A DNA stretch of 64,000 bases, taken from positions 5,394 through 69,393 of the IMG/VR virus record IMGVR_UViG_3300029288_000168; one strand, written 5' to 3'. Below, in pieces: positions 28,622-46,516 of the stretch. Each line of letters opens with the position of its first letter. Positions within the stretch are counted from its first letter, which is position 1. The notes under the pieces were generated by a model. It ran no database searches, was not told the DNA's origin, and saw only the letters and a list, made by a program, of their open reading frames with translations. The DNA comes from a virus. Taxonomy: Duplodnaviria > Caudoviricetes. Position numbers and translations under genes: made by a program.

Positions 28622-28627
28622 TTAATT

Positions 28628-28637
28628 TGTTCTTTGG
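28628..28637 (+). promoter_or_regulatory. boxA-like antitermination element
   Basis: TGTTCTTTGG directly before ncRNA candidate A. Confidence 0.55.
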
Positions 28638-28860
28638 ATAATTAAGTGGCGCGAAAGCGTAGTTATCTGAGCTGAGACTACTCGGATACGTTGCTTAGTT
28701 GCGGGCTCCATAAAACTATCAGGGAAGCCTGAGGGTGGACGACAACAGAAGACTACAAATAGCAGGGGTGTTAGTGACTGGGTACCAGTCCAATCCTGAG
28801 GGTATGTAGGGATGAAAAATAGCTTAACGTAAAGAGTTGACAAAGTCTTCACTTAATTAT
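28638..28860 (+). ncRNA. Structured ncRNA candidate A (about 220 nt)
   Basis: 11-bp closing helix ATAATTAAGTG/CACTTAATTAT, GCGC-GAAA-GCGT tetraloop, AAGACT/AGTCTT, CAGG-GAAG-CCTG, GACTGG-GTA-CCAGTC; no + strand ORF. Confidence 0.7.
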
Positions 28861-28865
28861 AATAG

Positions 28866-28880
28866 TGTTCTTTGATAACA
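28866..28880 (+). promoter_or_regulatory. boxA-like element
   Basis: TGTTCTTTGATAACA before ncRNA candidate B. Confidence 0.65.
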
Positions 28881-29430
28881 TTCACGATAAGAGATAAAAA
28901 TCGGGATCGAACTAAGCGCTTCTAATTGCGTAAATTAGAATCTATCGGGTATAAACCTAAATTGTCTCTTGACAAGACAGTATGATTATCCATACTCGGG
29001 TTACACCGGTACGGATGACAAATGCATGCTGGATAACCCAGCCGACCTAAGGCTCAAGTTTGAAGTTGAAAGACTGAAGACGAGCAAGGCTAATGGTTGA
29101 TGGTTTAAGTTTAAAGGCAATGGTGTCGTTTCCTATTGGGGAAATAGGGAGGTCGCCCGCAAATGCCGAATGACCTTGAGTAAGTTTGGTTCTTAGTTCC
29201 CAGTCGAAACTTTCAAGGCTTCCTTATTGGGGAATGTTTAAATTTCAGGTGGTAAGTTCAAGAGCGGAAACCGGGCGGGTCAGGATGGTCGTGCAGGGCT
29301 GCCTGACAAGGAAGGTGGACATGGCGAGAGGGCTGTCGTAACTGCGAATAGCGATGGGGTAGCCATGGTAGCAAAGACTCTACAAAGTCCCGTAGGGCTA
29401 ACCCTCTTAGGGTTGCTTGGACACGGCAAG
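28881..29430 (+). ncRNA. Large ornate ncRNA candidate B (about 550 nt)
   Basis: Many hairpins plus long-range pairs GAACTAAG(28909)/CTTAGTTC(29192), CGACCT(29043)/AGGTCG(29150), CTCAAG(29053)/CTTGAG(29175); GC-richer than flanks; no convincing ORF. Confidence 0.65.
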
Positions 29431-29455
29431 TATAAATATAATCTATTAAATATAC

Positions 29456-29485
29456 TTGACAAAATGGCATTTTGGATGGTATACT
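29456..29485 (+). promoter_or_regulatory. sigma70-type promoter
   Basis: TTGACA-18-TATACT. Confidence 0.7.
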
Positions 29486-29491
29486 AAACGT

Positions 29492-30025
29492 ATGGGCAAC
29501 AAACGTAAAAGGGCTATTGATCTTTGGAATTCTGGTTGTTTTACCATGCAACAAATTGGTAAACAATTGGGCTTGAGTAGGGAACGCATTAGACAATTTG
29601 TTGAAGATGCTATAAGGAGCAACCAAGCAGTTTTGTCTGCAAAAGAGTGGCAGTTGCATAGGAAAGTTGTAAGGGAGGCTTCAATAGATTGTGTGCGTAC
29701 ATCTAAACTTTGGGATATGCCACTATATACTACTGTTAGTAGAAATGGGTGGGTTAAGGTAAGGTTAAAGAGAATAATTAATAGATGGCGGTGTGAGAAA
29801 TGTGGGTGGCATAAATATCCTATAGCTTTGGTGATCCACCACATCGACAAAAACAGGAGAAACAACGATCCTAATAATTTAATGTTATTATGTCCTAATT
29901 GTCATTGGTTTATACATCAAATGTCTAAAGATTTTAGTATGACATCAAAGGGTCGGAAGAGACAAACGGGTAGTAATTATACGGAACATTTATATAAGAA
30001 GCGACACGCAATTAGAAGTATTTAA
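29492..30025 (+). CDS. HTH (sigma r4-like) plus HNH endonuclease, probably leaderless
   Basis: TMQQIGKQLGLSRERIRQ; CEKCG..IHHIDKNRRNN..NLMLLCPNCH; ATG 7 nt after the -10. Confidence 0.8.
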   Translation: MGNKRKRAIDLWNSGCFTMQQIGKQLGLSRERIRQFVEDAIRSNQAVLSAKEWQLHRKVVREASIDCVRTSKLWDMPLYTTVSRNGWVKVRLKRIINRWRCEKCGWHKYPIALVIHHIDKNRRNNDPNNLMLLCPNCHWFIHQMSKDFSMTSKGRKRQTGSNYTEHLYKKRHAIRSI

Positions 30026-30034
30026 CAAATGTGG

Positions 30035-30043
30035 TGATATAAT
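30035..30043 (+). promoter_or_regulatory. Extended -10 promoter for the tRNA island
   Basis: TG-A-TATAAT, no clear -35. Confidence 0.5.
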
Positions 30044-30289
30044 GTATAGTGATGACAAAGGCGGTCCAATATGAAACCGACTACAGGTGGTTAGATGAGA
30101 ACTGATGAACTTGAGGAAATGCGGTAATGGAAAATATTAAGAATGTTTGAGCAAAAAGATGAGAGTTGAAGAGGAAAAAGGCGCAAGGTAAATAAAGGAG
30201 TAGTACGATGTTTAGGTTATGGCAGGATAGGATGTTGCATTCGTCTGGACAGGGTCAACGCCCCGTCGAGGACGGGTGTAAGTACCCGT

Positions 30290-30410
30290 CAGCCTTAACC
30301 TGTGCTGCTCTGAATTTTAATATTATAGCCAAAACAATACTCGAATAAGCAGCAGCACTTAGGTTAAACTAAAAGGCTGTCGCAATATCGAGAGGAGTTT
30401 TGGCTTTTTT
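30290..30410 (+). ncRNA. Pseudoknot or alternative-fold leader element ending in a U-tract
   Basis: H1 30290-30309 pairs 30351-30379; H2 30327-30344 pairs 30388-30405; the two helices cross. Confidence 0.55.
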
Positions 30411-30417
30411 GTTCTTT
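30410..30417 (+). promoter_or_regulatory. boxA-like element
   Basis: TGTTCTTT before the first tRNA. Confidence 0.5.
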
Positions 30418-30492
30418 GGGGCTGTGGTCTAATGGGAGGACAAGGGTTTTTCAAGCCCTTAGCGAGGGTTCGATTTCCCTCCAGCCCTACCA
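30418..30492 (+). tRNA. tRNA-Glu(TTC)
   Basis: Cloverleaf, loop TTTTCAA, CCA. Confidence 0.92.
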
Positions 30493-30493
30493 T

Positions 30494-30567
30494 GGCGCAT
30501 TCGTCTAAAGGCAGGATAGATGGTTCTCAACCATTTGACACCGGGTCAGTACCGGTATGCGCTACCA
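30494..30567 (+). tRNA. tRNA-Glu(CTC), atypical T-loop GTCAGTA
   Basis: Cloverleaf, CCA. Confidence 0.88.
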
Positions 30568-30576
30568 AATTGAGAG

Positions 30577-31329
30577 GTGACATTGAAATGTATTAATTGT
30601 AATACTGATTTAATAGGTACTCAAACTAAATTCTGCAATAAGAAGTGTAAAGATAATTATTACCATAAACGGGATTTGGTCGATGTAAAATGTACTTGTT
30701 GTGGTAGTATGTTTAAACGCAGAAGGCAGAGATTGGGTATATATCGTAGTTTGTGTAGACATTGTAGTTCTAGGCAGAATGCATTAGATTATATGGCATA
30801 TAAATCTGGTAAAGATAGTCCAAAATGGAGGGGCGGGTACAAGTATTGGATGTCTGGGAGGTACGGCAAGGATAAAGATGGGTTATCTTGGAAGATACAA
30901 CGCAGGCTAGCACGTGAACGTGATGGGTACTTATGTCAGAAATGCGGATGTTGTGAGATAAATAAAAAAGTTAGTGTGCATCATAAAGTACCATACAGAA
31001 TTTCGTTTTCGCATGCTTTAGATAATTTGATATGTTTGTGTAAACGGTGCCACCCCAGAGATGAGTCTCAAATTAAAGAGTTGTGGGGAGGTAAGACGTT
31101 AGCTCCACCTATGAGAGGTTTACCTAAACCACGTTGTAGTATATGTAGCAAAAAGAGAAAGCTTATTGGTGGGATTTGTACAACTTGTATTAGAATTAAA
31201 AACATAACCACAGCTAGGTTGTTATTGAATGAGGGGCTGAGTTATGTTGAGGTTGGTAGGATGCTTAACAAGGATAGGCGGGTTGTTTGGAGTTGGGTCA
31301 ATATTTGTAAAGACGGTGTGGTGCAGTGA
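30577..31329 (+). CDS. HNH homing endonuclease with zinc fingers
   Basis: CQKCG..VHHKVPY..SHALDNLICLCKRCH; 3' end overlaps tRNA-Asp. Confidence 0.85.
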   Translation: MTLKCINCNTDLIGTQTKFCNKKCKDNYYHKRDLVDVKCTCCGSMFKRRRQRLGIYRSLCRHCSSRQNALDYMAYKSGKDSPKWRGGYKYWMSGRYGKDKDGLSWKIQRRLARERDGYLCQKCGCCEINKKVSVHHKVPYRISFSHALDNLICLCKRCHPRDESQIKELWGGKTLAPPMRGLPKPRCSICSKKRKLIGGICTTCIRIKNITTARLLLNEGLSYVEVGRMLNKDRRVVWSWVNICKDGVVQ

Positions 31330-31386
31330 ATAGCATACGAGCTTGTCACGCTTGAGACGCGAGTCTGATTCTCGCCATCGTCGCCA
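31312..31386 (+). tRNA. tRNA-Asp(GTC)
   Basis: GACGGTG/CATCGTC acceptor, loop TTGTCAC, GCCA. Confidence 0.9.
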
Positions 31387-31389
31387 AAT

Positions 31390-31399
31390 TGTTCTTTAA
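31390..31399 (+). promoter_or_regulatory. boxA-like element
   Basis: TGTTCTTTAA before the RNase P RNA. Confidence 0.6.
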
Positions 31400-31694
31400 T
31401 TAAGTTAACGAAGTAGTTGCGGGCCGTTTTACCAGTAAAAAGAAGATTTGGTGGTGTCATCTTCTTTTCGGTCTGAGGAAAGTCCGAGCTCCGCAGAGCA
31501 ACGTAGCAACTAACGGTTGCCCGCCGTGAGGCGAGGATTAGAGGACAGAGACGAGCCACTTAAGTGTGGGTGAGACGACCAATCTCTACGTGGAGCAAGT
31601 TCATATAGGAACCTAGCTGGCTCGGTTGATAGGTTCGGGTAGAACGCTTAGACGGATGACTACATAAACAAAACTCGGCTTATTGTTAACTTGA
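31400..31694 (+). ncRNA. rnpB: RNase P RNA, compact form
   Basis: GAGGAAAGTCC and ACAAAACTCGGCTTA P4 strands; P1 TTAAGTTAAC/GTTAACTTGA; P2, P3, P8, P9 and P15 GGTA identifiable; no apparent P13/14/18. Confidence 0.93.
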
Positions 31695-31775
31695 AAATTA
31701 AAGGGAATTCAGAAACGGCTTTGATGTAGGATCTTGTGAAGAAAACCGCTGATAACGACACTGATAGCCCTACGT

Positions 31776-31869
31776 GGAAGTGAGGTGCATAGTGGTTAGG
31801 CACGCTTGTTTGCTAAACAGGTGAGGATTAAACCCCCCTCTGCTGGTTCGACCCCAGTCACTTCCGCCA
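31776..31869 (+). tRNA. tRNA-Ser(GCT)
   Basis: Long variable arm, GCCA. Confidence 0.9.
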
Positions 31870-31873
31870 TTTT

Positions 31874-31962
31874 GGAGAGTAGCCAGATATGGTTGGCTGG
31901 GACGGCTTGGAATACCGTTTGGGATAAAACCCATGCTGATTCGAATTCAGCACTCTCCGCCA
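31874..31962 (+). tRNA. tRNA-Ser(GGA)
   Basis: Long variable arm, GCCA. Confidence 0.88.
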
Positions 31963-31967
31963 GTATT

Positions 31968-32055
31968 GGAGGATCTGGGCATATTGGTGAGCCCAACCGC
32001 CTCGAAAGCGGTAGCCGTAACAGGCTTGGTTGTTCAACTCAACCATCCTCCGCCA
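31968..32055 (+). tRNA. tRNA-Ser(CGA)
   Basis: Long variable arm, GCCA. Confidence 0.9.
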
Positions 32056-32058
32056 TTT

Positions 32059-32140
32059 GATGCTATAAGATAGGCGTTGTCCGACGGGCATAATGCGACC
32101 TATTGACCAGTCATTGACGAATATAAATCTGGCTAGCATC
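32059..32140 (+). ncRNA. 82-nt three-way-junction RNA candidate
   Basis: GATGCTA/TAGCATC closes ATAGG..CCTAT and CCAG..CTGG arms; not a cloverleaf. Confidence 0.5.
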
Positions 32141-32142
32141 TT

Positions 32143-32229
32143 GGAAGCGCTGAGCAGTGGCTGAGCTCACCCGTCTTGAACACGGGAGCTGTAAAAGGCT
32201 TAGAGGATCGTCGCCTCTCGCTTCCGCCA
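32143..32229 (+). tRNA. tRNA-Ser(TGA), atypical T-loop
   Basis: Long variable arm, GCCA. Confidence 0.88.
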
Positions 32230-32231
32230 TT

Positions 32232-32241
32232 TGTTCTTTAA
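32232..32241 (+). promoter_or_regulatory. boxA-like element
   Basis: TGTTCTTTAA. Confidence 0.6.
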
Positions 32242-32244
32242 TGT

Positions 32245-32318
32245 GGGAGTGAAGTGTTAGGGCAGCATCGCGGTCTCCAAAACCGTTGGTCAAGGTTCAA
32301 ATCCTTGCACTCCTGCCA
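32245..32318 (+). tRNA. tRNA-Trp(CCA)
   Basis: Cloverleaf, GCCA. Confidence 0.92.
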
Positions 32319-32319
32319 A

Positions 32320-32395
32320 GGTGGGATCGCCTAGATGGTAAGGCATTCGTTTCATAAGCGAATTATCGCGGATTCGAGTTCCGCTCCCACTACCA
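32320..32395 (+). tRNA. tRNA-Met(CAT), elongator (Ile2 not excluded)
   Basis: Cloverleaf, loop TTCATAA. Confidence 0.85.
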
Positions 32396-32399
32396 ATTT

Positions 32400-32476
32400 T
32401 GCGGGTTAGACTGGAGGTGGTTCCAGCATAGGCTCATACCCTATTGACATTGGTTCGATTCCAATACCCGCTTCCA
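32400..32476 (+). tRNA. tRNA(CAT), initiator-like
   Basis: 1:72 mismatch, TGCGGGT acceptor, loop CTCATAC; only two G-C pairs in the anticodon stem. Confidence 0.75.
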
Positions 32477-32477
32477 A

Positions 32478-32556
32478 GCGCAGGTACCCAAGTGGTCGAA
32501 GGGGACGGTCTGCAAAACCGTTATTACCGTCGGTTCAAATCCGACCCTGCGCTCCA
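32478..32556 (+). tRNA. tRNA-Cys(GCA)
   Basis: Cloverleaf, U73. Confidence 0.92.
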
Positions 32557-32563
32557 GATTTAT

Positions 32564-32575
32564 TGTTCTTTGTGA
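32564..32575 (+). promoter_or_regulatory. boxA-like element
   Basis: TGTTCTTTGTGA. Confidence 0.55.
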
Positions 32576-32578
32576 TTT

Positions 32579-32655
32579 GCGTTCGTGCGCCGAAATGGAT
32601 AGGCAATCGGCTTTTAACCGATACTATGAGAGTTCAAGCCTCTCCGAACGCACCA
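32579..32655 (+). tRNA. tRNA-Lys(TTT)
   Basis: Cloverleaf, ACCA. Confidence 0.92.
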
Positions 32656-32659
32656 ATAA

Positions 32660-32755
32660 AAGCTGAGATGTAGGTTCAACCCCTCGCAGGGGCAGTTCCT
32701 GCGTATACTAGGCTGTCACGGCAGCCTATAGTTTAATGGTAAAACGCAGCTTGTG
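32660..32755 (+). ncRNA. Circularly permuted tRNA-like RNA (YrlA-like topology) with an insertion in the T-arm
   Basis: Order: AGCTG, T-loop GTAGG-TTCAACC-CCT, hairpin, closed acceptor TAGGCTG-TCACGG-CAGCCTA, TA, D-arm GTTT-AATGGTA-AAAC, CAGCT. Confidence 0.65.
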
Positions 32756-32765
32756 TATAATTATT

Positions 32766-32840
32766 GGGTGTGTAGCAAAATGATAATGCATCTCCCTCTT
32801 AAGGAGAAGAATGAAGGTTAGAGTCCTTCCACACCCACCA
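32766..32840 (+). tRNA. tRNA-Lys(CTT)
   Basis: Cloverleaf, ACCA. Confidence 0.92.
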
Positions 32841-32855
32841 TTTTACAGGAGACAA

Positions 32856-33581
32856 ATGATACATAAACATAAAGTTAATGATAAGTTCTTTGACAAATGG
32901 TCTGCAGATATGGCATATGTTTTAGGATACTTTTTTGGTGATGGTTGTATTTACAAAAATAAGGGCGGGTCTAAACGAGTCATATTTTGTGGTCATCAAG
33001 ATGATGAGGAGTTTCTTAAGAAGTTGGCTAGTATAATAGGGTGTAGTGCTTTGGTATCTCAAAGTAAACGATCTAAATGTTGTAGGTTTGAATTTGTTAG
33101 TGCTAGGATGTTTGATAGGTTATATAGTTTGGGTAAGAGGAAGAGACTTGTTTGTCCTAAGGTACCCAGGGAGTTTATTAGAGATTTTGTAAGGGGATAT
33201 ATTGATTCTGATGGATGTGTAGGATTTGTGAAGTCTGAATACTATAAGACTTTGAGTAGTGGCTATAAAAAATTATATTGTTATAATAAATTGGTGGTGC
33301 AAATGACAAGTAAGGATATTGGGTTTTTATGTAAATTAGAGAAATATATTAGAGGTTTGGGTTTTAAGAAAGCAAATATCCACGGCAATCAATATTTTAG
33401 TGTTTATTATTATAGATTGCATGCACAACGATTAGTAGATTTAATATATTATAAAAATTGTTTAGCTTTAACGAGAAAATTGTTGCAGGTTCGTCTAATT
33501 GGTAGGACGGTTGGTTTTGAGCCAAAAAATCGTGGTTCGAGTCCACGACCTGTAGCCAATGCGGTGTCGACTAATAGGTAG
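32856..33581 (+). CDS. LAGLIDADG homing endonuclease
   Basis: YVLGYFFGDG and FVRGYIDSDG; AGGAG SD gives start 32856; reads through tRNA-Gln(TTG). Confidence 0.88.
   Translation: MIHKHKVNDKFFDKWSADMAYVLGYFFGDGCIYKNKGGSKRVIFCGHQDDEEFLKKLASIIGCSALVSQSKRSKCCRFEFVSARMFDRLYSLGKRKRLVCPKVPREFIRDFVRGYIDSDGCVGFVKSEYYKTLSSGYKKLYCYNKLVVQMTSKDIGFLCKLEKYIRGLGFKKANIHGNQYFSVYYYRLHAQRLVDLIYYKNCLALTRKLLQVRLIGRTVGFEPKNRGSSPRPVANAVSTNR
33484..33558 (+). tRNA. tRNA-Gln(TTG)
   Basis: TGCAGGT/ACCTGTA acceptor, GCCA. Confidence 0.88.
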
Positions 33582-33634
33582 GTCAACTGACTCTGAATCA
33601 GTTAGTTGAGGTTCGAACCCTTACACCGCAACCA
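33560..33634 (+). tRNA. tRNA-Gln(CTG)
   Basis: Cloverleaf, ACCA. Confidence 0.9.
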
Positions 33635-33642
33635 AATTTCAT

Positions 33643-33720
33643 CTGCGTGTAGCTCAGTTTGTCCAGAGCGCTCGGCCAGGAACCGAGAGGTCAGTGGTTG
33701 AAATCCACTCATGCAGACCA
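33643..33720 (+). tRNA. tRNA-Pro(AGG), rare anticodon, C33
   Basis: C1-G72, A73; stem CTCGG/CCGAG, loop CCAGGAA. Confidence 0.85.
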
Positions 33721-33724
33721 TTTA

Positions 33725-33802
33725 CGGAGTGTCGGTCAATTTGGTAGACCACATGCCCTGGGAGCATGAATAGTGAGAGTTCAAGTCTCTCCACTCCGAC
33801 CA
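33725..33802 (+). tRNA. tRNA-Pro(TGG), C33
   Basis: CGGAGTG acceptor, loop CCTGGGA. Confidence 0.9.
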
Positions 33803-33816
33803 ATTTAGAGGTAGTA

Positions 33817-33960
33817 ATGAAGATAAGAAAGAAGTTGCAAAAAGAGATTGAGAGAAGGGGGAAGCTTTCAAGTTGGGAACAGTTTGAAATCGAGACTGCC
33901 GACCCAATGTTGTTTAAGGTTCAAAAAGAGGTACAAAGGAGTAGTAAATGCGGTGCTTAG
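33817..33960 (+). CDS. Small basic hypothetical protein
   Basis: GAGG SD; 47 aa. Confidence 0.45.
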   Translation: MKIRKKLQKEIERRGKLSSWEQFEIETADPMLFKVQKEVQRSSKCGA

Positions 33961-34451
33961 TTTTAAATGCAAGCCATGAGTTTCTTGGCGTCTGTGACTG
34001 GCAGTCGGCTGTTTGTGCTACTGTTACGGGCAAGGTAATAGTTATGGAGGAGTATGATAGGGTTATACACTCTGTATCTATGGAGATGAGGGTTCCGGCT
34101 GTTATAAAGCTTAAGAACTATGTTAAGGTTTCTTATGATAGGATATCCTACGTTTCCTACACCAAGCGCAACGTACATCTCCGTGATAACTACATATGTC
34201 AGTACTGTGGCGAGAAGACGGATTCTAAGCACATAGGCATTGACCATGTTTTACCAGAATCTCGTGGCGGTCAAGACACATGGGAAAATACAGTTTCAGC
34301 TTGCAACCCTTGCAACTTTGATAAGGACAACCGAACGCCTTGGGAAGCAGGTATGAAGCTGATAAGGACTCCCCATAAGCCTCGTGGTTTTAAGGAGATT
34401 ATAAGAATTAAGGTTGGTGAAATACATGATCTTTGGTTGAAGTATTTGTAA
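33948..34451 (+). CDS. McrA-type HNH nuclease
   Basis: LVLNAS, PAVIKL, RDNYICQYCG, IDHVLPESRGG, CNPCNFDK. Confidence 0.9.
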   Translation: MRCLVLNASHEFLGVCDWQSAVCATVTGKVIVMEEYDRVIHSVSMEMRVPAVIKLKNYVKVSYDRISYVSYTKRNVHLRDNYICQYCGEKTDSKHIGIDHVLPESRGGQDTWENTVSACNPCNFDKDNRTPWEAGMKLIRTPHKPRGFKEIIRIKVGEIHDLWLKYL

Positions 34452-34459
34452 AATTTGAT

Positions 34460-34535
34460 GGCGGGTATAGTGTAATGGAAGCACAGGAGACTGTGGCTCT
34501 CCTAGAGCGGGTTCGATTTCCCGTTACTCGCCCCA
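34460..34535 (+). tRNA. tRNA-His(GTG) with encoded G-1
   Basis: 8-bp acceptor G-1:C73. Confidence 0.92.
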
Positions 34536-34541
34536 AATTTC

Positions 34542-34616
34542 GAGTCGCAGGTGTTAGTGACAGCACATCGGGCCGTAACCCCGTTGGTGAAGGTTTAAGT
34601 CCTTCGCGACTCACCA
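34542..34616 (+). tRNA. tRNA-Tyr(GTA), short variable loop, C33
   Basis: G1-C72, A73, loop CCGTAAC; lacks the usual bacterial long arm. Confidence 0.7.
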
Positions 34617-34618
34617 TT

Positions 34619-34630
34619 TGATCTTTGAAA
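34619..34630 (+). promoter_or_regulatory. boxA-like element
   Basis: TGATCTTTGAAA. Confidence 0.6.
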
Positions 34631-34632
34631 TT

Positions 34633-34706
34633 GGGGGCTTGGTATAGCGAGATTACTCCCGCCCTGCAAGCGGGCGACGGCGGTTTGATTCCGCCAGCCT
34701 CCACCA
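34633..34706 (+). tRNA. tRNA-Ala(TGC)
   Basis: G3:U70, loop CCTGCAA. Confidence 0.88.
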
Positions 34707-34711
34707 ATATA

Positions 34712-34839
34712 CGAGCAATAGTGTAATATCTTGTGAGAGTAGGTGTCGACTCCATGGTTAATAGTCAAGGCATTAGGGTAGCAGGACAGCATGATTAGCA
34801 GTGGCTGATAGGTTACGTGAAAATCGTATTGCTCGACCA
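34712..34839 (+). ncRNA. 128-nt acceptor-stem/ACCA RNA lacking a normal anticodon arm
   Basis: CGAGCAATA/TATTGCTCG followed by ACCA; T-like hairpin TACG-TGAAAAT-CGTA; internal hairpins. Confidence 0.55.
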
Positions 34840-34859
34840 ACAATTTAGGGGGGGGGGCA

Positions 34860-35711
34860 GTGTATAAATGTAAATATTGTGGTAAAGAGTTTGAAAAGTG
34901 CGGTAGTCTCGGTGCTCATGTCTTGTGTATGCATAACGTTGAGTTTAGAAGAAAGCAACGCTTACCTAGAAGGTTGCGTGAGGTTATAACTAGACAATGC
35001 GCAGTGTGCGGTTGTAAATTTTCGTATGAGAAAATTGTTGGTAGTAAGAAGGGCGACAGGAAGTGTTGTTCGGTATCATGTGCGGCAAGACGATATCCGA
35101 CGAATGTCAATGTGTGTTTGTGTTGTGGGAAAAATATAGATAGACATCTTAAGTTTTGTAGTTTAAAATGTTGTTATGAATATAAGCGTCAGGAATATAT
35201 TAAAAAGTGGTTGAAAGGCGAAGTTAGTGGGAATACTAAGGATGACTTGTCTAATCATGTACGTAAGTATTTGTTTGAAATCAATAATAATAAATGTGAG
35301 AAGTGTGGTTGGAATGAAGTAAACAAACTTACTGGGCTGGTGCCATTAGAGATACATCATAAAGACGGCAATAGTGGAAATAGTAAAAGAGAAAATGTGG
35401 AGTTGTTATGCCCCAATTGTCATTCCCTTACGTTTAATTATGGTGGGCTTAATGTTGGCAATGGCAGAGAATGTCGCAGGCTGAGTAGGCAGGAACATAA
35501 GCTCGGTATAATACATATTAAAAGATCAATAAAGATAAAGAAAAATTGTCTATTGTGTAATAAAGAATTTTTTGTTTTCCCAAGCCGAAGTAAGAGGAAA
35601 TACTGTTCTCATAAGTGTGCTTTATCTTCCCCTAAAAGAGTATCATATACTACGTCGGGGATGGCGCTTCTTAGCTCTAGTAGTGATAACGTTAGCACAA
35701 CTGTCTTGTAA
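34860..35711 (+). CDS. HNH homing endonuclease with multiple zinc fingers
   Basis: CEKCG..LEIHHKDGNSGNSKRENVELLCPNCH; 3' end overlaps tRNA-Thr(TGT). Confidence 0.87.
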   Translation: MYKCKYCGKEFEKCGSLGAHVLCMHNVEFRRKQRLPRRLREVITRQCAVCGCKFSYEKIVGSKKGDRKCCSVSCAARRYPTNVNVCLCCGKNIDRHLKFCSLKCCYEYKRQEYIKKWLKGEVSGNTKDDLSNHVRKYLFEINNNKCEKCGWNEVNKLTGLVPLEIHHKDGNSGNSKRENVELLCPNCHSLTFNYGGLNVGNGRECRRLSRQEHKLGIIHIKRSIKIKKNCLLCNKEFFVFPSRSKRKYCSHKCALSSPKRVSYTTSGMALLSSSSDNVSTTVL

Positions 35712-35748
35712 ACAGTGAGTCGGAGTTAAATTCTCCGCTAGAGCTCCA
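35674..35748 (+). tRNA. tRNA-Thr(TGT)
   Basis: Cloverleaf, TCCA. Confidence 0.9.
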
Positions 35749-35753
35749 GATTT

Positions 35754-35828
35754 GCCCGTCTAGTGATAATGTTAGCACGTCTGTTTCGTAAGCAGAAAGT
35801 CAGAGTTAAATTCTCTGGATGGGCTCCA
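35754..35828 (+). tRNA. tRNA-Thr(CGT)
   Basis: Cloverleaf, TCCA. Confidence 0.9.
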
Positions 35829-35829
35829 A

Positions 35830-35903
35830 GCTCGTGTGGTTCAAAAGTAGAATGCGTCCTTGGTAAGGATGAGACGACAGAGCGTTACTGTCCACGAGCT
35901 CCA
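35830..35903 (+). tRNA. tRNA-Thr(GGT), atypical T-loop
   Basis: Cloverleaf, TCCA. Confidence 0.88.
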
Positions 35904-35909
35904 GATTTA

Positions 35910-35979
35910 CACGGTGTAGGATAAAGTAGTCTCTCCTGCGCGCAGGAGGATTCAGCTTGACGAACTGACGCCGTGACCA
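35910..35979 (+). tRNA. Degenerate tRNA-like RNA with a self-complementary 6-nt anticodon loop
   Basis: CACGGTG/CGCCGTG acceptor plus ACCA; arm CTCCT-GCGCGC-AGGAG. Confidence 0.6.
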
Positions 35980-35980
35980 A

Positions 35981-36055
35981 GCGGGTGAAGTGTTTATGGT
36001 TACACCCCAGTCTTCCAAACTGGTATAGAGAGATCGTGACTCTCCACCCGCTCCA
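35981..36055 (+). tRNA. tRNA-Gly(TCC)
   Basis: GCG acceptor start, U73. Confidence 0.9.
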
Positions 36056-36060
36056 GATTT

Positions 36061-36135
36061 GCCGCAATAGCTTAATTGGTGAAAGCGACCGCCTGAAGAG
36101 CGGAAGATTCGGCTCGATACCCGATTGCGGCACCA
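36061..36135 (+). tRNA. tRNA-Phe(GAA)
   Basis: Cloverleaf, ACCA. Confidence 0.9.
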
Positions 36136-36139
36136 ATAT

Positions 36140-36222
36140 TCCGAGGTTGGGTAATGGTATCCCAGCGGACTGTTAATCCGTCGCCGTAAGGCATGCAGGT
36201 TCGACTCCTGCTCTCGGAGCCA
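36140..36222 (+). tRNA. tRNA-Asn(GTT) with a long variable arm
   Basis: TCC start, G73; extra arm GCC-GTAA-GGC. Confidence 0.88.
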
Positions 36223-36227
36223 ATTTT

Positions 36228-36303
36228 GCCCGCATAGCCTAGCGGCTAAGGCGACTGGTCTACACCCAGTGCATCGGTGGTTCGAGTCCATCTGCGGGTA
36301 CCA
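36228..36303 (+). tRNA. tRNA-Val(TAC), C33
   Basis: Loop TCTACAC, ACCA. Confidence 0.88.
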
Positions 36304-36307
36304 TTTT

Positions 36308-36399
36308 CGGCGGTTAGTTCAATGGTAGAACAGCGGTCTTATAAGCCGTAAGCATCCGATTAATGCGTAATCGAGGTTCAAGTCCTCGACCGCCGACCA
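36308..36399 (+). tRNA. tRNA-Ile(TAT) with a long variable arm
   Basis: Loop CTTATAA; extra arm GCAT-CCGATTA-ATGC. Confidence 0.85.
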
Positions 36400-36404
36400 A
36401 TTTA

Positions 36405-36481
36405 CCACGTGTGGCTGAGGTAGATATAGCGCCATCCTGATAAGGTGGAGAACGTCAGCGCAAATCTGACCGCGTGGACCA
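36405..36481 (+). tRNA. tRNA-Ile(GAT)
   Basis: Cloverleaf, T-loop CGCAAAT. Confidence 0.9.
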
Positions 36482-36483
36482 AT

Positions 36484-36495
36484 TGCTCTTTGTAA
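36484..36495 (+). promoter_or_regulatory. boxA-like element
   Basis: TGCTCTTTGTAA, closest to the E. coli rrn boxA. Confidence 0.65.
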
Positions 36496-37359: not shown

Positions 37360-37389
37360 TTGACAATACAGTGTTTGTTGTGGTATAAT
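37360..37389 (+). promoter_or_regulatory. sigma70-type promoter for the Y-like RNA array and TerD-domain gene
   Basis: TTGACA-18-TATAAT, with TGTGG. Confidence 0.8.
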
Positions 37390-44139: not shown

Positions 44140-45021
44140 ATGAGCCACTTTTCTGTACTAGTAGTTGGTTCAAACCCAGAGGAACAGTTAGCCCCGTTTA
44201 ACGAGGACTTAAAGGTAGATCCATATATGGAGAATTGCTACTGTATAGGTCGGAGGGCTTTAGAAGAGGTTGAAAAAAGGGTGGCATCAGAATGTTTGGT
44301 TGGGGATGAGAGTGTAAAGACGATACTGACGAACGCAGAAGATGGTATTTTTCAACCCGTATCTGAGGTGGAGGTAGTTCGTCGCAAGGCTGTGTTTGAT
44401 GTATATATAGAAAAGCGCCGTCAGCTTGTGGACAGGTATCTTCAAGACCATCCACTTAAAGATAAGCCAGACTTAAAGTGTAAAGAGTGTAGTGGTTCAG
44501 GGAAAAGGGAAACTACTTATAACCCAAACTCTAAATGGGATTATTATGTTTTGGGTGGCAGGTGGTGCGGTTTCTTTAAACTGAAGTCTGGAGCGTGCTG
44601 TCCTAAAATTGTATACAGGGGCATCTTTAAGTACGATCCTGAATTTGATACTGATGTTGCTTGTAAGGGGGATATTGATTTTGATGGTATGAGAGTAGCT
44701 CGGATTGAGAAAGCTACAAAGATGTGGGATCTTTTAGCTCCGCAGTTGGATAGTAAAGTTCTGTTAGAACGTCAAGAAGCATTTGCTCAATTGTTTGGGG
44801 CTGGCAATGTACTAACAAAAGACCAATATATTAAGGAGTCGGCACCTATTGCAACGTTTGCTGTATTGATGGATGAGGTATGGTATGAAAGAGGATCTAT
44901 GAAGTGGTTTGGCACTGTCAGCAATGATAAAGGCATTGGTGTTTGGGAAGATTGGTTTTGTAAAACCATCAATGCTTTGCCAGATAATACTTTGCTTAGC
45001 GTTTATGATTGTCATATTTAA
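44140..45021 (+). CDS. Hypothetical phage protein with a DnaJ-type CxxCxGxG finger
   Basis: MSHFSVLVV; CKECSGSG; NPNSKWDYYVLGGRW; YDCHI. Confidence 0.7.
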   Translation: MSHFSVLVVGSNPEEQLAPFNEDLKVDPYMENCYCIGRRALEEVEKRVASECLVGDESVKTILTNAEDGIFQPVSEVEVVRRKAVFDVYIEKRRQLVDRYLQDHPLKDKPDLKCKECSGSGKRETTYNPNSKWDYYVLGGRWCGFFKLKSGACCPKIVYRGIFKYDPEFDTDVACKGDIDFDGMRVARIEKATKMWDLLAPQLDSKVLLERQEAFAQLFGAGNVLTKDQYIKESAPIATFAVLMDEVWYERGSMKWFGTVSNDKGIGVWEDWFCKTINALPDNTLLSVYDCHI

Positions 45022-45027
45022 ATATAC

Positions 45028-45057
45028 TTGACAAACCTGTGTTTCATGTGGTATAAT
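45028..45057 (+). promoter_or_regulatory. sigma70-type promoter of ncRNA candidate C
   Basis: TTGACA-18-TATAAT. Confidence 0.8.
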
Positions 45058-45078
45058 GGATGTTGGTGGTAAAAATAT

Positions 45079-45090
45079 TGATCTTTGAGA
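45079..45090 (+). promoter_or_regulatory. boxA-like element
   Basis: TGATCTTTGAGA. Confidence 0.6.
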
Positions 45091-45511
45091 TTAACTTGGG
45101 GCAACCCTTAGAGCCGAAGCAATGCCTTTGTTAGGATTGGGTTAGCAGTTAGGATAGAAGGTAGCCAGGAAACTGGAGCTGGACTTAACTGTGGTGACCA
45201 AGTTAAAAGTGGGTGTTGGCGTAATGAATACGCTGCAAACTTTATAAGTGAAGACCGGATGCGGGGCCACTGAACGTAGCTAATTTCATTGCAATGAAAT
45301 TACATGCTGGCTACAGCCGGACGCGGTCGCGGGCCATATGTTCAGTCGCAGTGAGGTGACGATACCTTATAAGGTTGAAGAAATTGATGGGATGTAGCTA
45401 CTCCCTGGGCGCCTTTTATGAAGAATTAGGACGCGGGATACCTAACCCGTAGGTTAATAAAGTTCCGAAAGCTAAAGCTGGTAAAAATCCAGCCACCCAC
45501 TTTATAAGTTT
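45091..45511 (+). ncRNA. Large structured ncRNA candidate C (about 420 nt)
   Basis: AAAGTGGGTG/CACCCACTTT (10 bp), ACTGAAC/GTTCAGT crossed by GACCG/CGGTC, CCAG-GAAA-CTGG, 22-nt palindrome; own promoter and boxA; no ORF. Confidence 0.72.
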
Positions 45512-45553
45512 ACAAACGGTTAAGGCACAACACTCTAAAAAGGAGATGGGTAC

Positions 45554-45757
45554 ATGGGGAAGGGTTTGAATGAGATGACGCGAGACTTGTACGGAATGGA
45601 TTATGATAAGTTAACAATGTTTCAGCAGGCAAGGGTAAGGTCAAAGGTTGGTAGTGTTGTGGTTTCCTTATGCAAGTCTTGCAAGAGTGTTGAGTATTGT
45701 CCAAGAACCCCGAAGGATAAAACAATAGAGTGCGAGTTATATAGCAATAATACTTGA
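45554..45757 (+). CDS. Small Cys-containing hypothetical protein
   Basis: AAGGAG SD. Confidence 0.55.
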   Translation: MGKGLNEMTRDLYGMDYDKLTMFQQARVRSKVGSVVVSLCKSCKSVEYCPRTPKDKTIECELYSNNT

Positions 45758-45783
45758 CAAACCTGTGTTGCATGTGGTATAAT
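45754..45783 (+). promoter_or_regulatory. sigma70-type promoter
   Basis: One mismatch to the 45028 promoter. Confidence 0.8.
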
Positions 45784-45808
45784 ATTTTTATACAAAGGAG
45801 ATGGCGAG

Positions 45809-46516
45809 ATGGCAGAGTGCATTAAAGTAAAGTGTGTTGTTTGTCACAGGGATGTTCTAGTTTATACGAATGATAAGAAGTTGCACCAGTCCAAAATAGT
45901 TACGGAGAACAAGGTATGTAAGTTGTGCGAACCTAACGTGTCTAGGATTAGGGTTGTACTTAAGTGCTCTAAGTGCCAGCACGATTTTCAGACTAAGGTT
46001 CTGACAGAAAATAAAGATAAGTACGGCGCAGATTGGGTTTGCCCGATGTGTGTCAGCAACGACCTGCCTCAAGTAAAATCCAAAGAAGAAAAAAAGAAGT
46101 GTGTAGAGCTCAACTGCGACGGATGTCGTGTAGGGCGCGGTGTGTGTGTGCATCCAGAGCTTAACTGCACACTTTCCAAGAGCTTTGCGCGGTTTGGTAC
46201 TGGGGACTTGTATTCCGTAAAGAAAGCGTGTACGGTACTTTCTGTGCACAACGTGATTGCTAAGAGGAAAGACGTGCACTGCTTTGAATATACTCCGCTG
46301 TACAAGGAGAACTATAGCATTTCTGCAGATAACTATATAGTTATAAAGCAACGTATGGGGTCTAAGAAGAACTTTGTAACTAACATAATCGTGTACCAGT
46401 ATGACAAGGCGCACCACCAGTTTAAGGTGGCTTTGGATGTTAAGTATAACCGAGGGGAGGATTGGATAGTCCCTACTCGTAATTTTATGCTAAAGAAAGG
46501 GGAGAACGTTGGCTAA
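45809..46516 (+). CDS. Multi-zinc-finger hypothetical protein
   Basis: Several CxxC pairs; AAGGAG SD. Confidence 0.65.
   Translation: MAECIKVKCVVCHRDVLVYTNDKKLHQSKIVTENKVCKLCEPNVSRIRVVLKCSKCQHDFQTKVLTENKDKYGADWVCPMCVSNDLPQVKSKEEKKKCVELNCDGCRVGRGVCVHPELNCTLSKSFARFGTGDLYSVKKACTVLSVHNVIAKRKDVHCFEYTPLYKENYSISADNYIVIKQRMGSKKNFVTNIIVYQYDKAHHQFKVALDVKYNRGEDWIVPTRNFMLKKGENVG

Follow-up and report, generated by a model that had tools for sequence, protein, structure and literature searches.

A boxA-like motif and a putative structured RNA unit behind an early promoter of a tRNA-rich phage

Described systems closest to the 45-kb locus

BoxA is a NusB/NusE site which makes rRNA transcription resistant to Rho. 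In bacterial rrn operons it is placed just after the promoter and again ahead of the 23S rRNA (PMC10250234), and the rrn leader combines the boxB-boxA-boxC elements with a leader-trailer helix (rrnTAC; PMC10250234) that needs more than 17 bp in E. coli (PMC10250234). The boxA consensus of gamma-proteobacteria is GYTCTTTAANA (PMC5725501). The phage locus which we describe here is similar to an rrn leader in several respects: a boxA-like element lies just after a strong promoter, the transcript is untranslated, a predicted long-range helix would join both flanks of a putative structured RNA, and the phage motif is repeated through its tRNA and RNase P array. On the other hand, the phage unit encloses about 300-420 nt of unassigned kind instead of rRNA, its motif agrees at 8 of 10 fixed positions with a gamma-proteobacterial consensus that may not be the host's, its helix is 10 bp when counted as perfect (about 25 when interrupted) as opposed to more than 17 bp in E. 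coli, and neither boxB nor boxC was identified in it.

In the early control region of phage T7, gene 0.3 is preceded by host promoters, a boxA-like element and an RNase III site. Compared with the RNA considered here, the leader of T7 is much shorter, and its RNase III hairpins are local, with no stalk enclosing 300 nt. The likeness between the two lies in the arrangement, that is early promoters for the host polymerase followed by an untranslated structured leader which is processed off the first small early gene in T7 and may be so here; there is no sequence similarity between T7 and our RNA region. The stable RNAs of phage T4, species 1 and 2, lie in its tRNA cluster. Like these, and like GOLLD and ROOL, the large phage-associated RNAs of Rfam, the RNA at 45 kb would be a phage-encoded structured non-coding RNA of unassigned function in a tRNA-rich phage, but it lies 8 kb off the tRNA array, has an early promoter to itself and gives no covariance-model match to GOLLD, ROOL or any other family. 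Two untranslated stretches of the same phage, behind the promoters at 37360 and 40751, are comparable as well: they share the promoter type, there is a boxA-like motif nearby, and a protein gene follows or adjoins.

The window, by which we mean the whole 64,000-nt stretch of DNA that was analysed, is a part of a 69-kb IMG/VR record estimated to be 37% complete. The source phage is large, and the Rfam scan places about 30 tRNA genes, together with one for RNase P RNA, at 30.4-37.3 kb. It is otherwise tightly packed. When plus-strand gaps of at least 150 nt without a 45-codon ORF were listed for the window, nine were located inside the RNA-gene array (26.8-37.7 kb), while the tenth, and the only one outside the array, was the RNA region at 45 kb. 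This region sits among early-type promoter units, in agreement with an earlier note on this DNA that had placed it among early genes. Replication genes begin 1.7 kb downstream, and ParB-like, SSB, primase and helicase genes lie on that side.

It needs to be mentioned that the gene immediately upstream (44140-45021, 293 aa) belongs to PHROG 10079, a family of unknown function, and has hundreds of relatives with 25-46% identity in phages and prophages, e.g. in records of Bacteroides and Burkholderia. It shows no linkage to the RNA region.

Promoter, boxA-like motif and coding capacity

Two elements define the beginning of the unit:

45028-45057, plus strand: sigma-70 promoter, TTGACA-18-TATAAT with a TG extension (extended -10), 12 of 12 matches
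45078-45087, plus strand: boxA-like motif TTGATCTTTG, about 15 nt into the predicted transcript, starting 21 nt past the -10 hexamer

The consensus promoter pointed out in the earlier note is thus a perfect sigma-70 match, from which transcription is predicted to start at about 45063-45066. Ten such near-identical consensus early promoters (atacTTGACAaacct...tgtggTATAAT), this one included, occur on the plus strand between 25831 and 47170. Five of the nine others have leaders of only about 15-45 nt to a Shine-Dalgarno sequence and ATG, without boxA, and a long untranslated stretch follows each of the promoters at 37360, 40751 and 45028.

About 490 nt behind the 45028 promoter are free of genes. 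The region had been described as lacking an ORF, and indeed no plus-strand ORF of at least 30 aa is present in 45031-45554. Each of the six frames of the RNA region is interrupted by 5-15 stops, and as every plus-strand frame contains all three stop codons, stop-codon reassignment cannot rescue any of them. For the nine stop-free fragments (29-63 aa), Pfam and PHROG returned nothing significant, only one chance-level PHROG match (E 0.3), so no pseudogene is seen. A recoded or decayed gene was therefore rejected, and the region is non-coding. Its GC content, previously called rich, is 0.46-0.49 in 45100-45500 vs 0.405 for the window, and is raised in a similar way to that of the other RNA gaps of this phage. 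A CsrA-type GGA sponge was also considered and rejected, as about 10 GGA motifs (hand count) are what base composition predicts.

The boxA-like site reported earlier is found at 45078-87, and about 470 nt without an ORF follow it. Its degenerate form, TTGHTCTTTR, occurs 10 times in the window vs 1.48 expected, and a count of 10 was not attained in any of 100 shuffles. Nine of these copies are on the plus strand; eight of the nine are in the RNA-gene array, where they span 28627-36492, and the ninth heads the 45-kb RNA unit. Six of the eight array copies end 0-6 nt 5' of an RNA gene called by Rfam, namely the RNase P RNA at 31401 and the tRNAs at 30418, 32245, 32579, 34633 and 36499. The ninth copy ends 3 nt before a helix arm (45091-99). 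No copy of TTGHTCTTTR is present in the plus-strand coding sequence of the window. The motif is thus tied to RNA genes.

As to its similarity to boxA, 8 of the 10 fixed positions in GYTCTTTAANA, a gamma-proteobacterial consensus that may not be that of the host, are shared by the 11-mer GATCTTTGAGA, taken from the G at 45080; the departures are A for Y at position 2 and G for A at position 8. The other array copies agree at 7-9 of the 10 fixed positions of this same consensus, with the same reservation about the host. The motif at 45 kb can also form a weak 7-bp hairpin (45078-84/45088-94, p 0.73). Because the element is boxA-like, is tied to RNA genes and is placed as boxA is in rrn operons, we read it as the mark of an untranslated unit. 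As it ends only 0-6 nt before six RNA genes, TTGHTCTTTR may serve as a leader or 5'-processing signal, either in addition to being a boxA or in its place.

Predicted fold and searches for relatives

The size of about 420 nt given earlier corresponds to the promoter-led unit 45091-45511. Folding of this segment alone resulted in two stem-closed domains, the second of which may be extended by a stalk:

45091-45206, plus strand: domain 1, about 115 nt, closable by a perfect 9-bp helix (45091-99/45198-206)
45206-45503, plus strand: domain 2, 298 nt, with 45206-15/45494-503 as its perfect 10-bp closing helix, p 0.97 with the 3' tail
45184-45524, plus strand: possible leader-trailer stalk, 45184-45215 against 45494-45524, about 25 interrupted pairs extending the 10-bp helix

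Only domain 2 is robustly predicted, as its 10-bp helix, one of those listed in the earlier note and confirmed here with all 10 pairs perfect, stays at p 0.97, while the closing helix of domain 1, present in both the MFE and the centroid structure of 45091-45511, drops to p 0.04 once the 3' tail is included. The predicted fold of domain 1 is thus ambiguous and depends on the chosen ends. Within it, the GNRA hairpin CCAG-GAAA-CUGG (45165-76) has p 0.97. The inner helices of domain 2 have p 0.8-1.0: these are hairpins 45218-34, 45351-70 (with three G-U pairs) and 45477-93, and also a branched stem, proposed as 45269-75/45340-46 and recovered here as 45266-78/45337-49 with 11 of 13 pairs, which carries a palindrome hairpin at 45281-302. 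All three small hairpins noticed earlier were likewise found (CCAG-GAAA-CTGG at 45165-76, GCGTA/TACGC at 45219-34 and GCTGG/CCAGC at 45477-93). As for the proposed pseudoknot, the complementary pair GACCG/CGGTC (45253-57/45324-28) is present, but since the crossing helix has only 5 bp and its 3' arm sits in a likelier local hairpin (45316-19/45324-27, p 0.83), we do not count it as supported. The extension of the stalk consists of 45184-92/45516-24 (p 0.64) and two 3-bp steps, and by analogy the stalk is a candidate RNase III-type processing stem.

The structure is moderately more than chance would give. Fold z-scores were -2.26 for 45091-45511 and -3.0 for domain 2 (45206-45503), the ends being hand-chosen in both cases. 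The genuine RNase P RNA of this phage reaches a fold z-score of only -1.0, and for this reason the test discriminates poorly in either direction. Scanned in unbiased 300-nt windows, the RNA region has z -1.7, which is equalled by some neighbouring coding windows. With its duplex energy of -28.4 to -29.1 kcal/mol the stalk ranks within the top 6% among 271 control windows, each represented by its best long-range duplex, and by its count of perfect inverted repeats the RNA region ranks within the top 2% among 461-nt windows.

Two kinds of symmetric sequence are superimposed on this fold. The 22-nt palindrome at 45281-45302, reported earlier as perfect, is indeed so and exceeds in length every other perfect palindrome of the window; it does not recur as a site elsewhere in the window, and the 39 exact matches of its core in viral contigs are all in unrelated contexts. 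The second kind is a shorter repeat:

45239-45509, plus strand: three near-palindrome copies, ACTTTATAAGT at 45239-49 and at 45499-509, and CCTTATAAGG within 45364-76

The start-to-start spacings of these CTT(T)ATAAG copies are 125 and 135 bp, and alternative mutual pairings between them are possible. In the window the motif is almost confined to the RNA region. The sole CTTATAAG outside it is at 36338-36345, inside a tRNA called at 36308-36396, a resemblance which we judge to be coincidental because no local stems flank the three copies of the RNA.

To assign the RNA to a family, Rfam 15 was used (4227 models, including tmRNA, SRP, 6S, RNase P and group I/II introns, and also GOLLD, ROOL, OLE, HEARO and riboswitches). 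No match was found in 45022-45553 at gathering thresholds, in line with the earlier failure to see tmRNA, SRP or intron signatures. With permissive filters and E up to 10, a search of 651 bases gave three chance-level matches only (E 4-7; CRISPR repeat, mir-509). As a positive control, a divergent, trimmed copy of RNase P RNA in the window was found at 149 bits. ARAGORN run on 44800-45800 detected no tRNA and no tmRNA.

Homologues were looked for by several routes. Neither blastn of the RNA region against GenBank phages, nor nhmmer over 155 loci carrying the 293-aa gene (75 viral, 80 metagenome), nor BLAST over 46 whole viral records revealed a homologue of the RNA. Scans of viral contigs for one exact 17-mer and for the palindrome core gave nothing beyond chance matches, a scan of GTDB genomes for one 22-mer was negative, and no paralogue of the RNA is present in the window. 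In the relatives of the 293-aa gene there is no gap downstream and other genes follow directly; in the closest of them a terminator and another gene occupy the position of the RNA.

The ORF67 cassette and the interpretation of the unit

Downstream of the RNA region two further features are located:

45541-45757, plus strand: ORF67 with strong Shine-Dalgarno sequence AAGGAG, ATG at 45554, 67 aa, four Cys (CxxC-x5-C-x10-C)
45750-45783, plus strand: second promoter copy, 33/34 identical (97%) to 45024-45057

The earlier note had called the RNA stand-alone, and this could not be upheld, as there is no intrinsic terminator between the RNA and ORF67, which has no promoter of its own. Unless processing takes place, the RNA therefore physically forms the 5' portion of the transcript of ORF67, and no terminator defines its 3' end. 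An exhaustive HMMER search of 1.8 billion representative proteins found one homologue of ORF67, a 66-aa protein (P0122) on a 991-nt Logan contig, 75% identical and with all four Cys kept, and a strain variant (P0124) that is 99% identical and located on a 122.5-kb contig. A second HMMER match, P0123, is a leucine-rich-repeat protein and was discarded as spurious. ORF67 is a real gene. It has no match in Pfam, PHROG or the ESM atlas. When ORF67 was sought in viral contigs together with the SSB, helicase, 235-aa and DIP1984-like genes, only SSB matched, in 1 contig and with 45% identity, and that contig ends before reaching the region equivalent to the RNA. No match was obtained by tblastn of the ORF67 homologue and the 235-aa protein against GenBank phages.

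Direct repeats of 34 nt (45024-45057 and 45750-45783; 33/34) bracket a 726-bp cassette consisting of the RNA and ORF67, and its layout is suggestive of an exchangeable module with a promoter on either flank. As a whole, the cassette is specific to the lineage of this phage. The 235-aa gene behind the second promoter copy (45809-46516) has a weak match to a treble-clef zinc finger, DUF4379 (E 0.0065, below the cut-off). We also considered sequestration of the ribosome-binding site, i.e. a translational riboswitch of ORF67, and rejected it: in the fold of 45064-45600 the Shine-Dalgarno sequence and ATG of ORF67 (45541-56) are unpaired with the upstream RNA, and a ribosome-binding site that is free argues against a simple translational switch.

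The reading that we tentatively favour, with somewhat less than even confidence, is that of an untranslated unit in the style of an rRNA operon, in which a boxA-like element would protect a structured RNA of about 420 nt and the stalk-clamped 298-nt domain would probably be released by processing. In this scenario, transcription by host RNA polymerase would begin from the strong early promoter at 45028, and the nascent RNA would display, within its first 25 nt, the same boxA-like element that heads the tRNA and RNase P blocks. This element may, through Nus factors, stop Rho from ending a transcript that is free of ribosomes. The next 420 nt or so would fold into one or two stem-closed domains, the best-supported being the 298-nt domain clamped by 45206-15/45494-503, whose flanks may extend the helix to a stalk of about 25 bp. 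The stalk could then serve as a processing site of the RNase III kind, and cutting there would free a stable RNA, possibly acting in trans, from the mRNA of ORF67, in the manner of rRNA precursors.

This rRNA-style reading is favoured by the z-score of domain 2 (-3.0 vs -1.0 for the RNase P RNA of the phage), by the long untranslated stretches that also follow promoters of the same type at 37360 and 40751, and by a combination of properties of the region: it is non-coding, it is the lone gap outside the array, it carries the TTGHTCTTTR tag, its GC is raised, its helices have high p, and its layout resembles that of rrn. Of these arguments, the gap and the tag, both drawn from the genomic context, weigh most. 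It is weakened, on the other hand, because no homologue was found in any search, and hence there is no covariation; because its sliding-window z is no better than that of some coding neighbours; and because the stalk is only in the top 6% and the inverted repeats only in the top 2%. It is further weakened by the boxA-like motif being two positions off the published consensus and perhaps paired itself, by the dependence of the domain 1 fold on the chosen ends, by the lack of a terminator at the 3' end and by the lineage-specific nature of the cassette.

A possible, though more doubtful, explanation is that no RNA is released at all and the region is a long cis-acting 5' leader of the mRNA of ORF67 and of read-through genes, where boxA would load Nus factors and the fold would stabilise or tune the message. 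The missing terminator and the dependence of a real, conserved ORF67 on an upstream promoter are what one would expect of such a leader. However, early expression does not require a long leader, given that five of the nine other promoters lack boxA and manage with leaders of only about 15-45 nt; the ORF67 ribosome-binding site is left free by the upstream fold; elsewhere the motif is tied to RNA genes and not to mRNAs; and the next promoter is only 200 nt on, which leaves little operon to antiterminate. It is unlikely that the region is filler without a function, having decayed or been acquired recently within a promoter-flanked mobile cassette, and with helices formed by chance. The failure of all searches to find a homologue would agree with this, as would the structure statistics (only p 0.02-0.06), the 34-nt direct repeats around the cassette, and the terminator and other gene found at this position in the closest relative of the upstream 293-aa gene. 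Yet this is a tightly packed phage whose other large gaps are all within the RNA-gene array, no trace of a former gene is left in any frame, GC is raised in the RNA region, and the marker motif of RNA genes is exactly where it would be expected.

We consider it very unlikely that the region acts at the level of DNA, as a set of operator, partition or origin sites in which the palindrome and the three CTT(T)ATAAG copies would be bound by a phage DNA-binding protein. This idea draws on a palindrome that is unmatched in length within the window and perfect even across its centre, on three motif copies that are spaced 125 and 135 bp apart and almost confined to the RNA region, and on the replication genes beginning 1.7 kb downstream. 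Nevertheless, neither palindrome nor repeat recurs as a site elsewhere in the window, the 39 core matches in viral contigs have unrelated surroundings, there is no GC-skew change and no AT-rich unwinding region (the RNA region is in fact GC-richer than its surroundings), and the motifs also make sense as arms of RNA helices. Finally, the RNA could be a very divergent member of a known family (tmRNA, SRP, 6S, group I intron, GOLLD or ROOL) missed by the covariance models; this is conceivable in a phage that has taken over more than one kind of host RNA (tRNAs, RNase P RNA), but we regard it as highly improbable, given that Rfam returned nothing on 651 bases up to E 10 except the three chance-level matches, that ARAGORN finds nothing, and that the divergent, trimmed RNase P copy of the same window still scores 149 bits.

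A further extension of the rRNA-style reading, decidedly speculative and in our opinion improbable, is that a stem-clamped RNA of 300-420 nt cut from the early transcript would associate with the four-Cys ORF67 protein to form a phage-specific ribonucleoprotein in the first minutes of infection. If true, this ribonucleoprotein would represent a new class of RNA with a dedicated small protein partner, and its targets would be found in host takeover or among the tRNAs and RNase P RNA of the phage itself.

At present the RNA is a single-lineage orphan, and its value is mainly that of a candidate for transcript mapping. If the unit is real, this phage would open an early unit with an extended, folded RNA whose layout and protection are those of a ribosomal RNA gene, and a boxA-like tag would join this RNA to the private tRNA set and RNase P RNA of the phage. 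Ultimately, it would then become testable what Nus-type antitermination and rRNA-style processing do for the RNA genes of phages.
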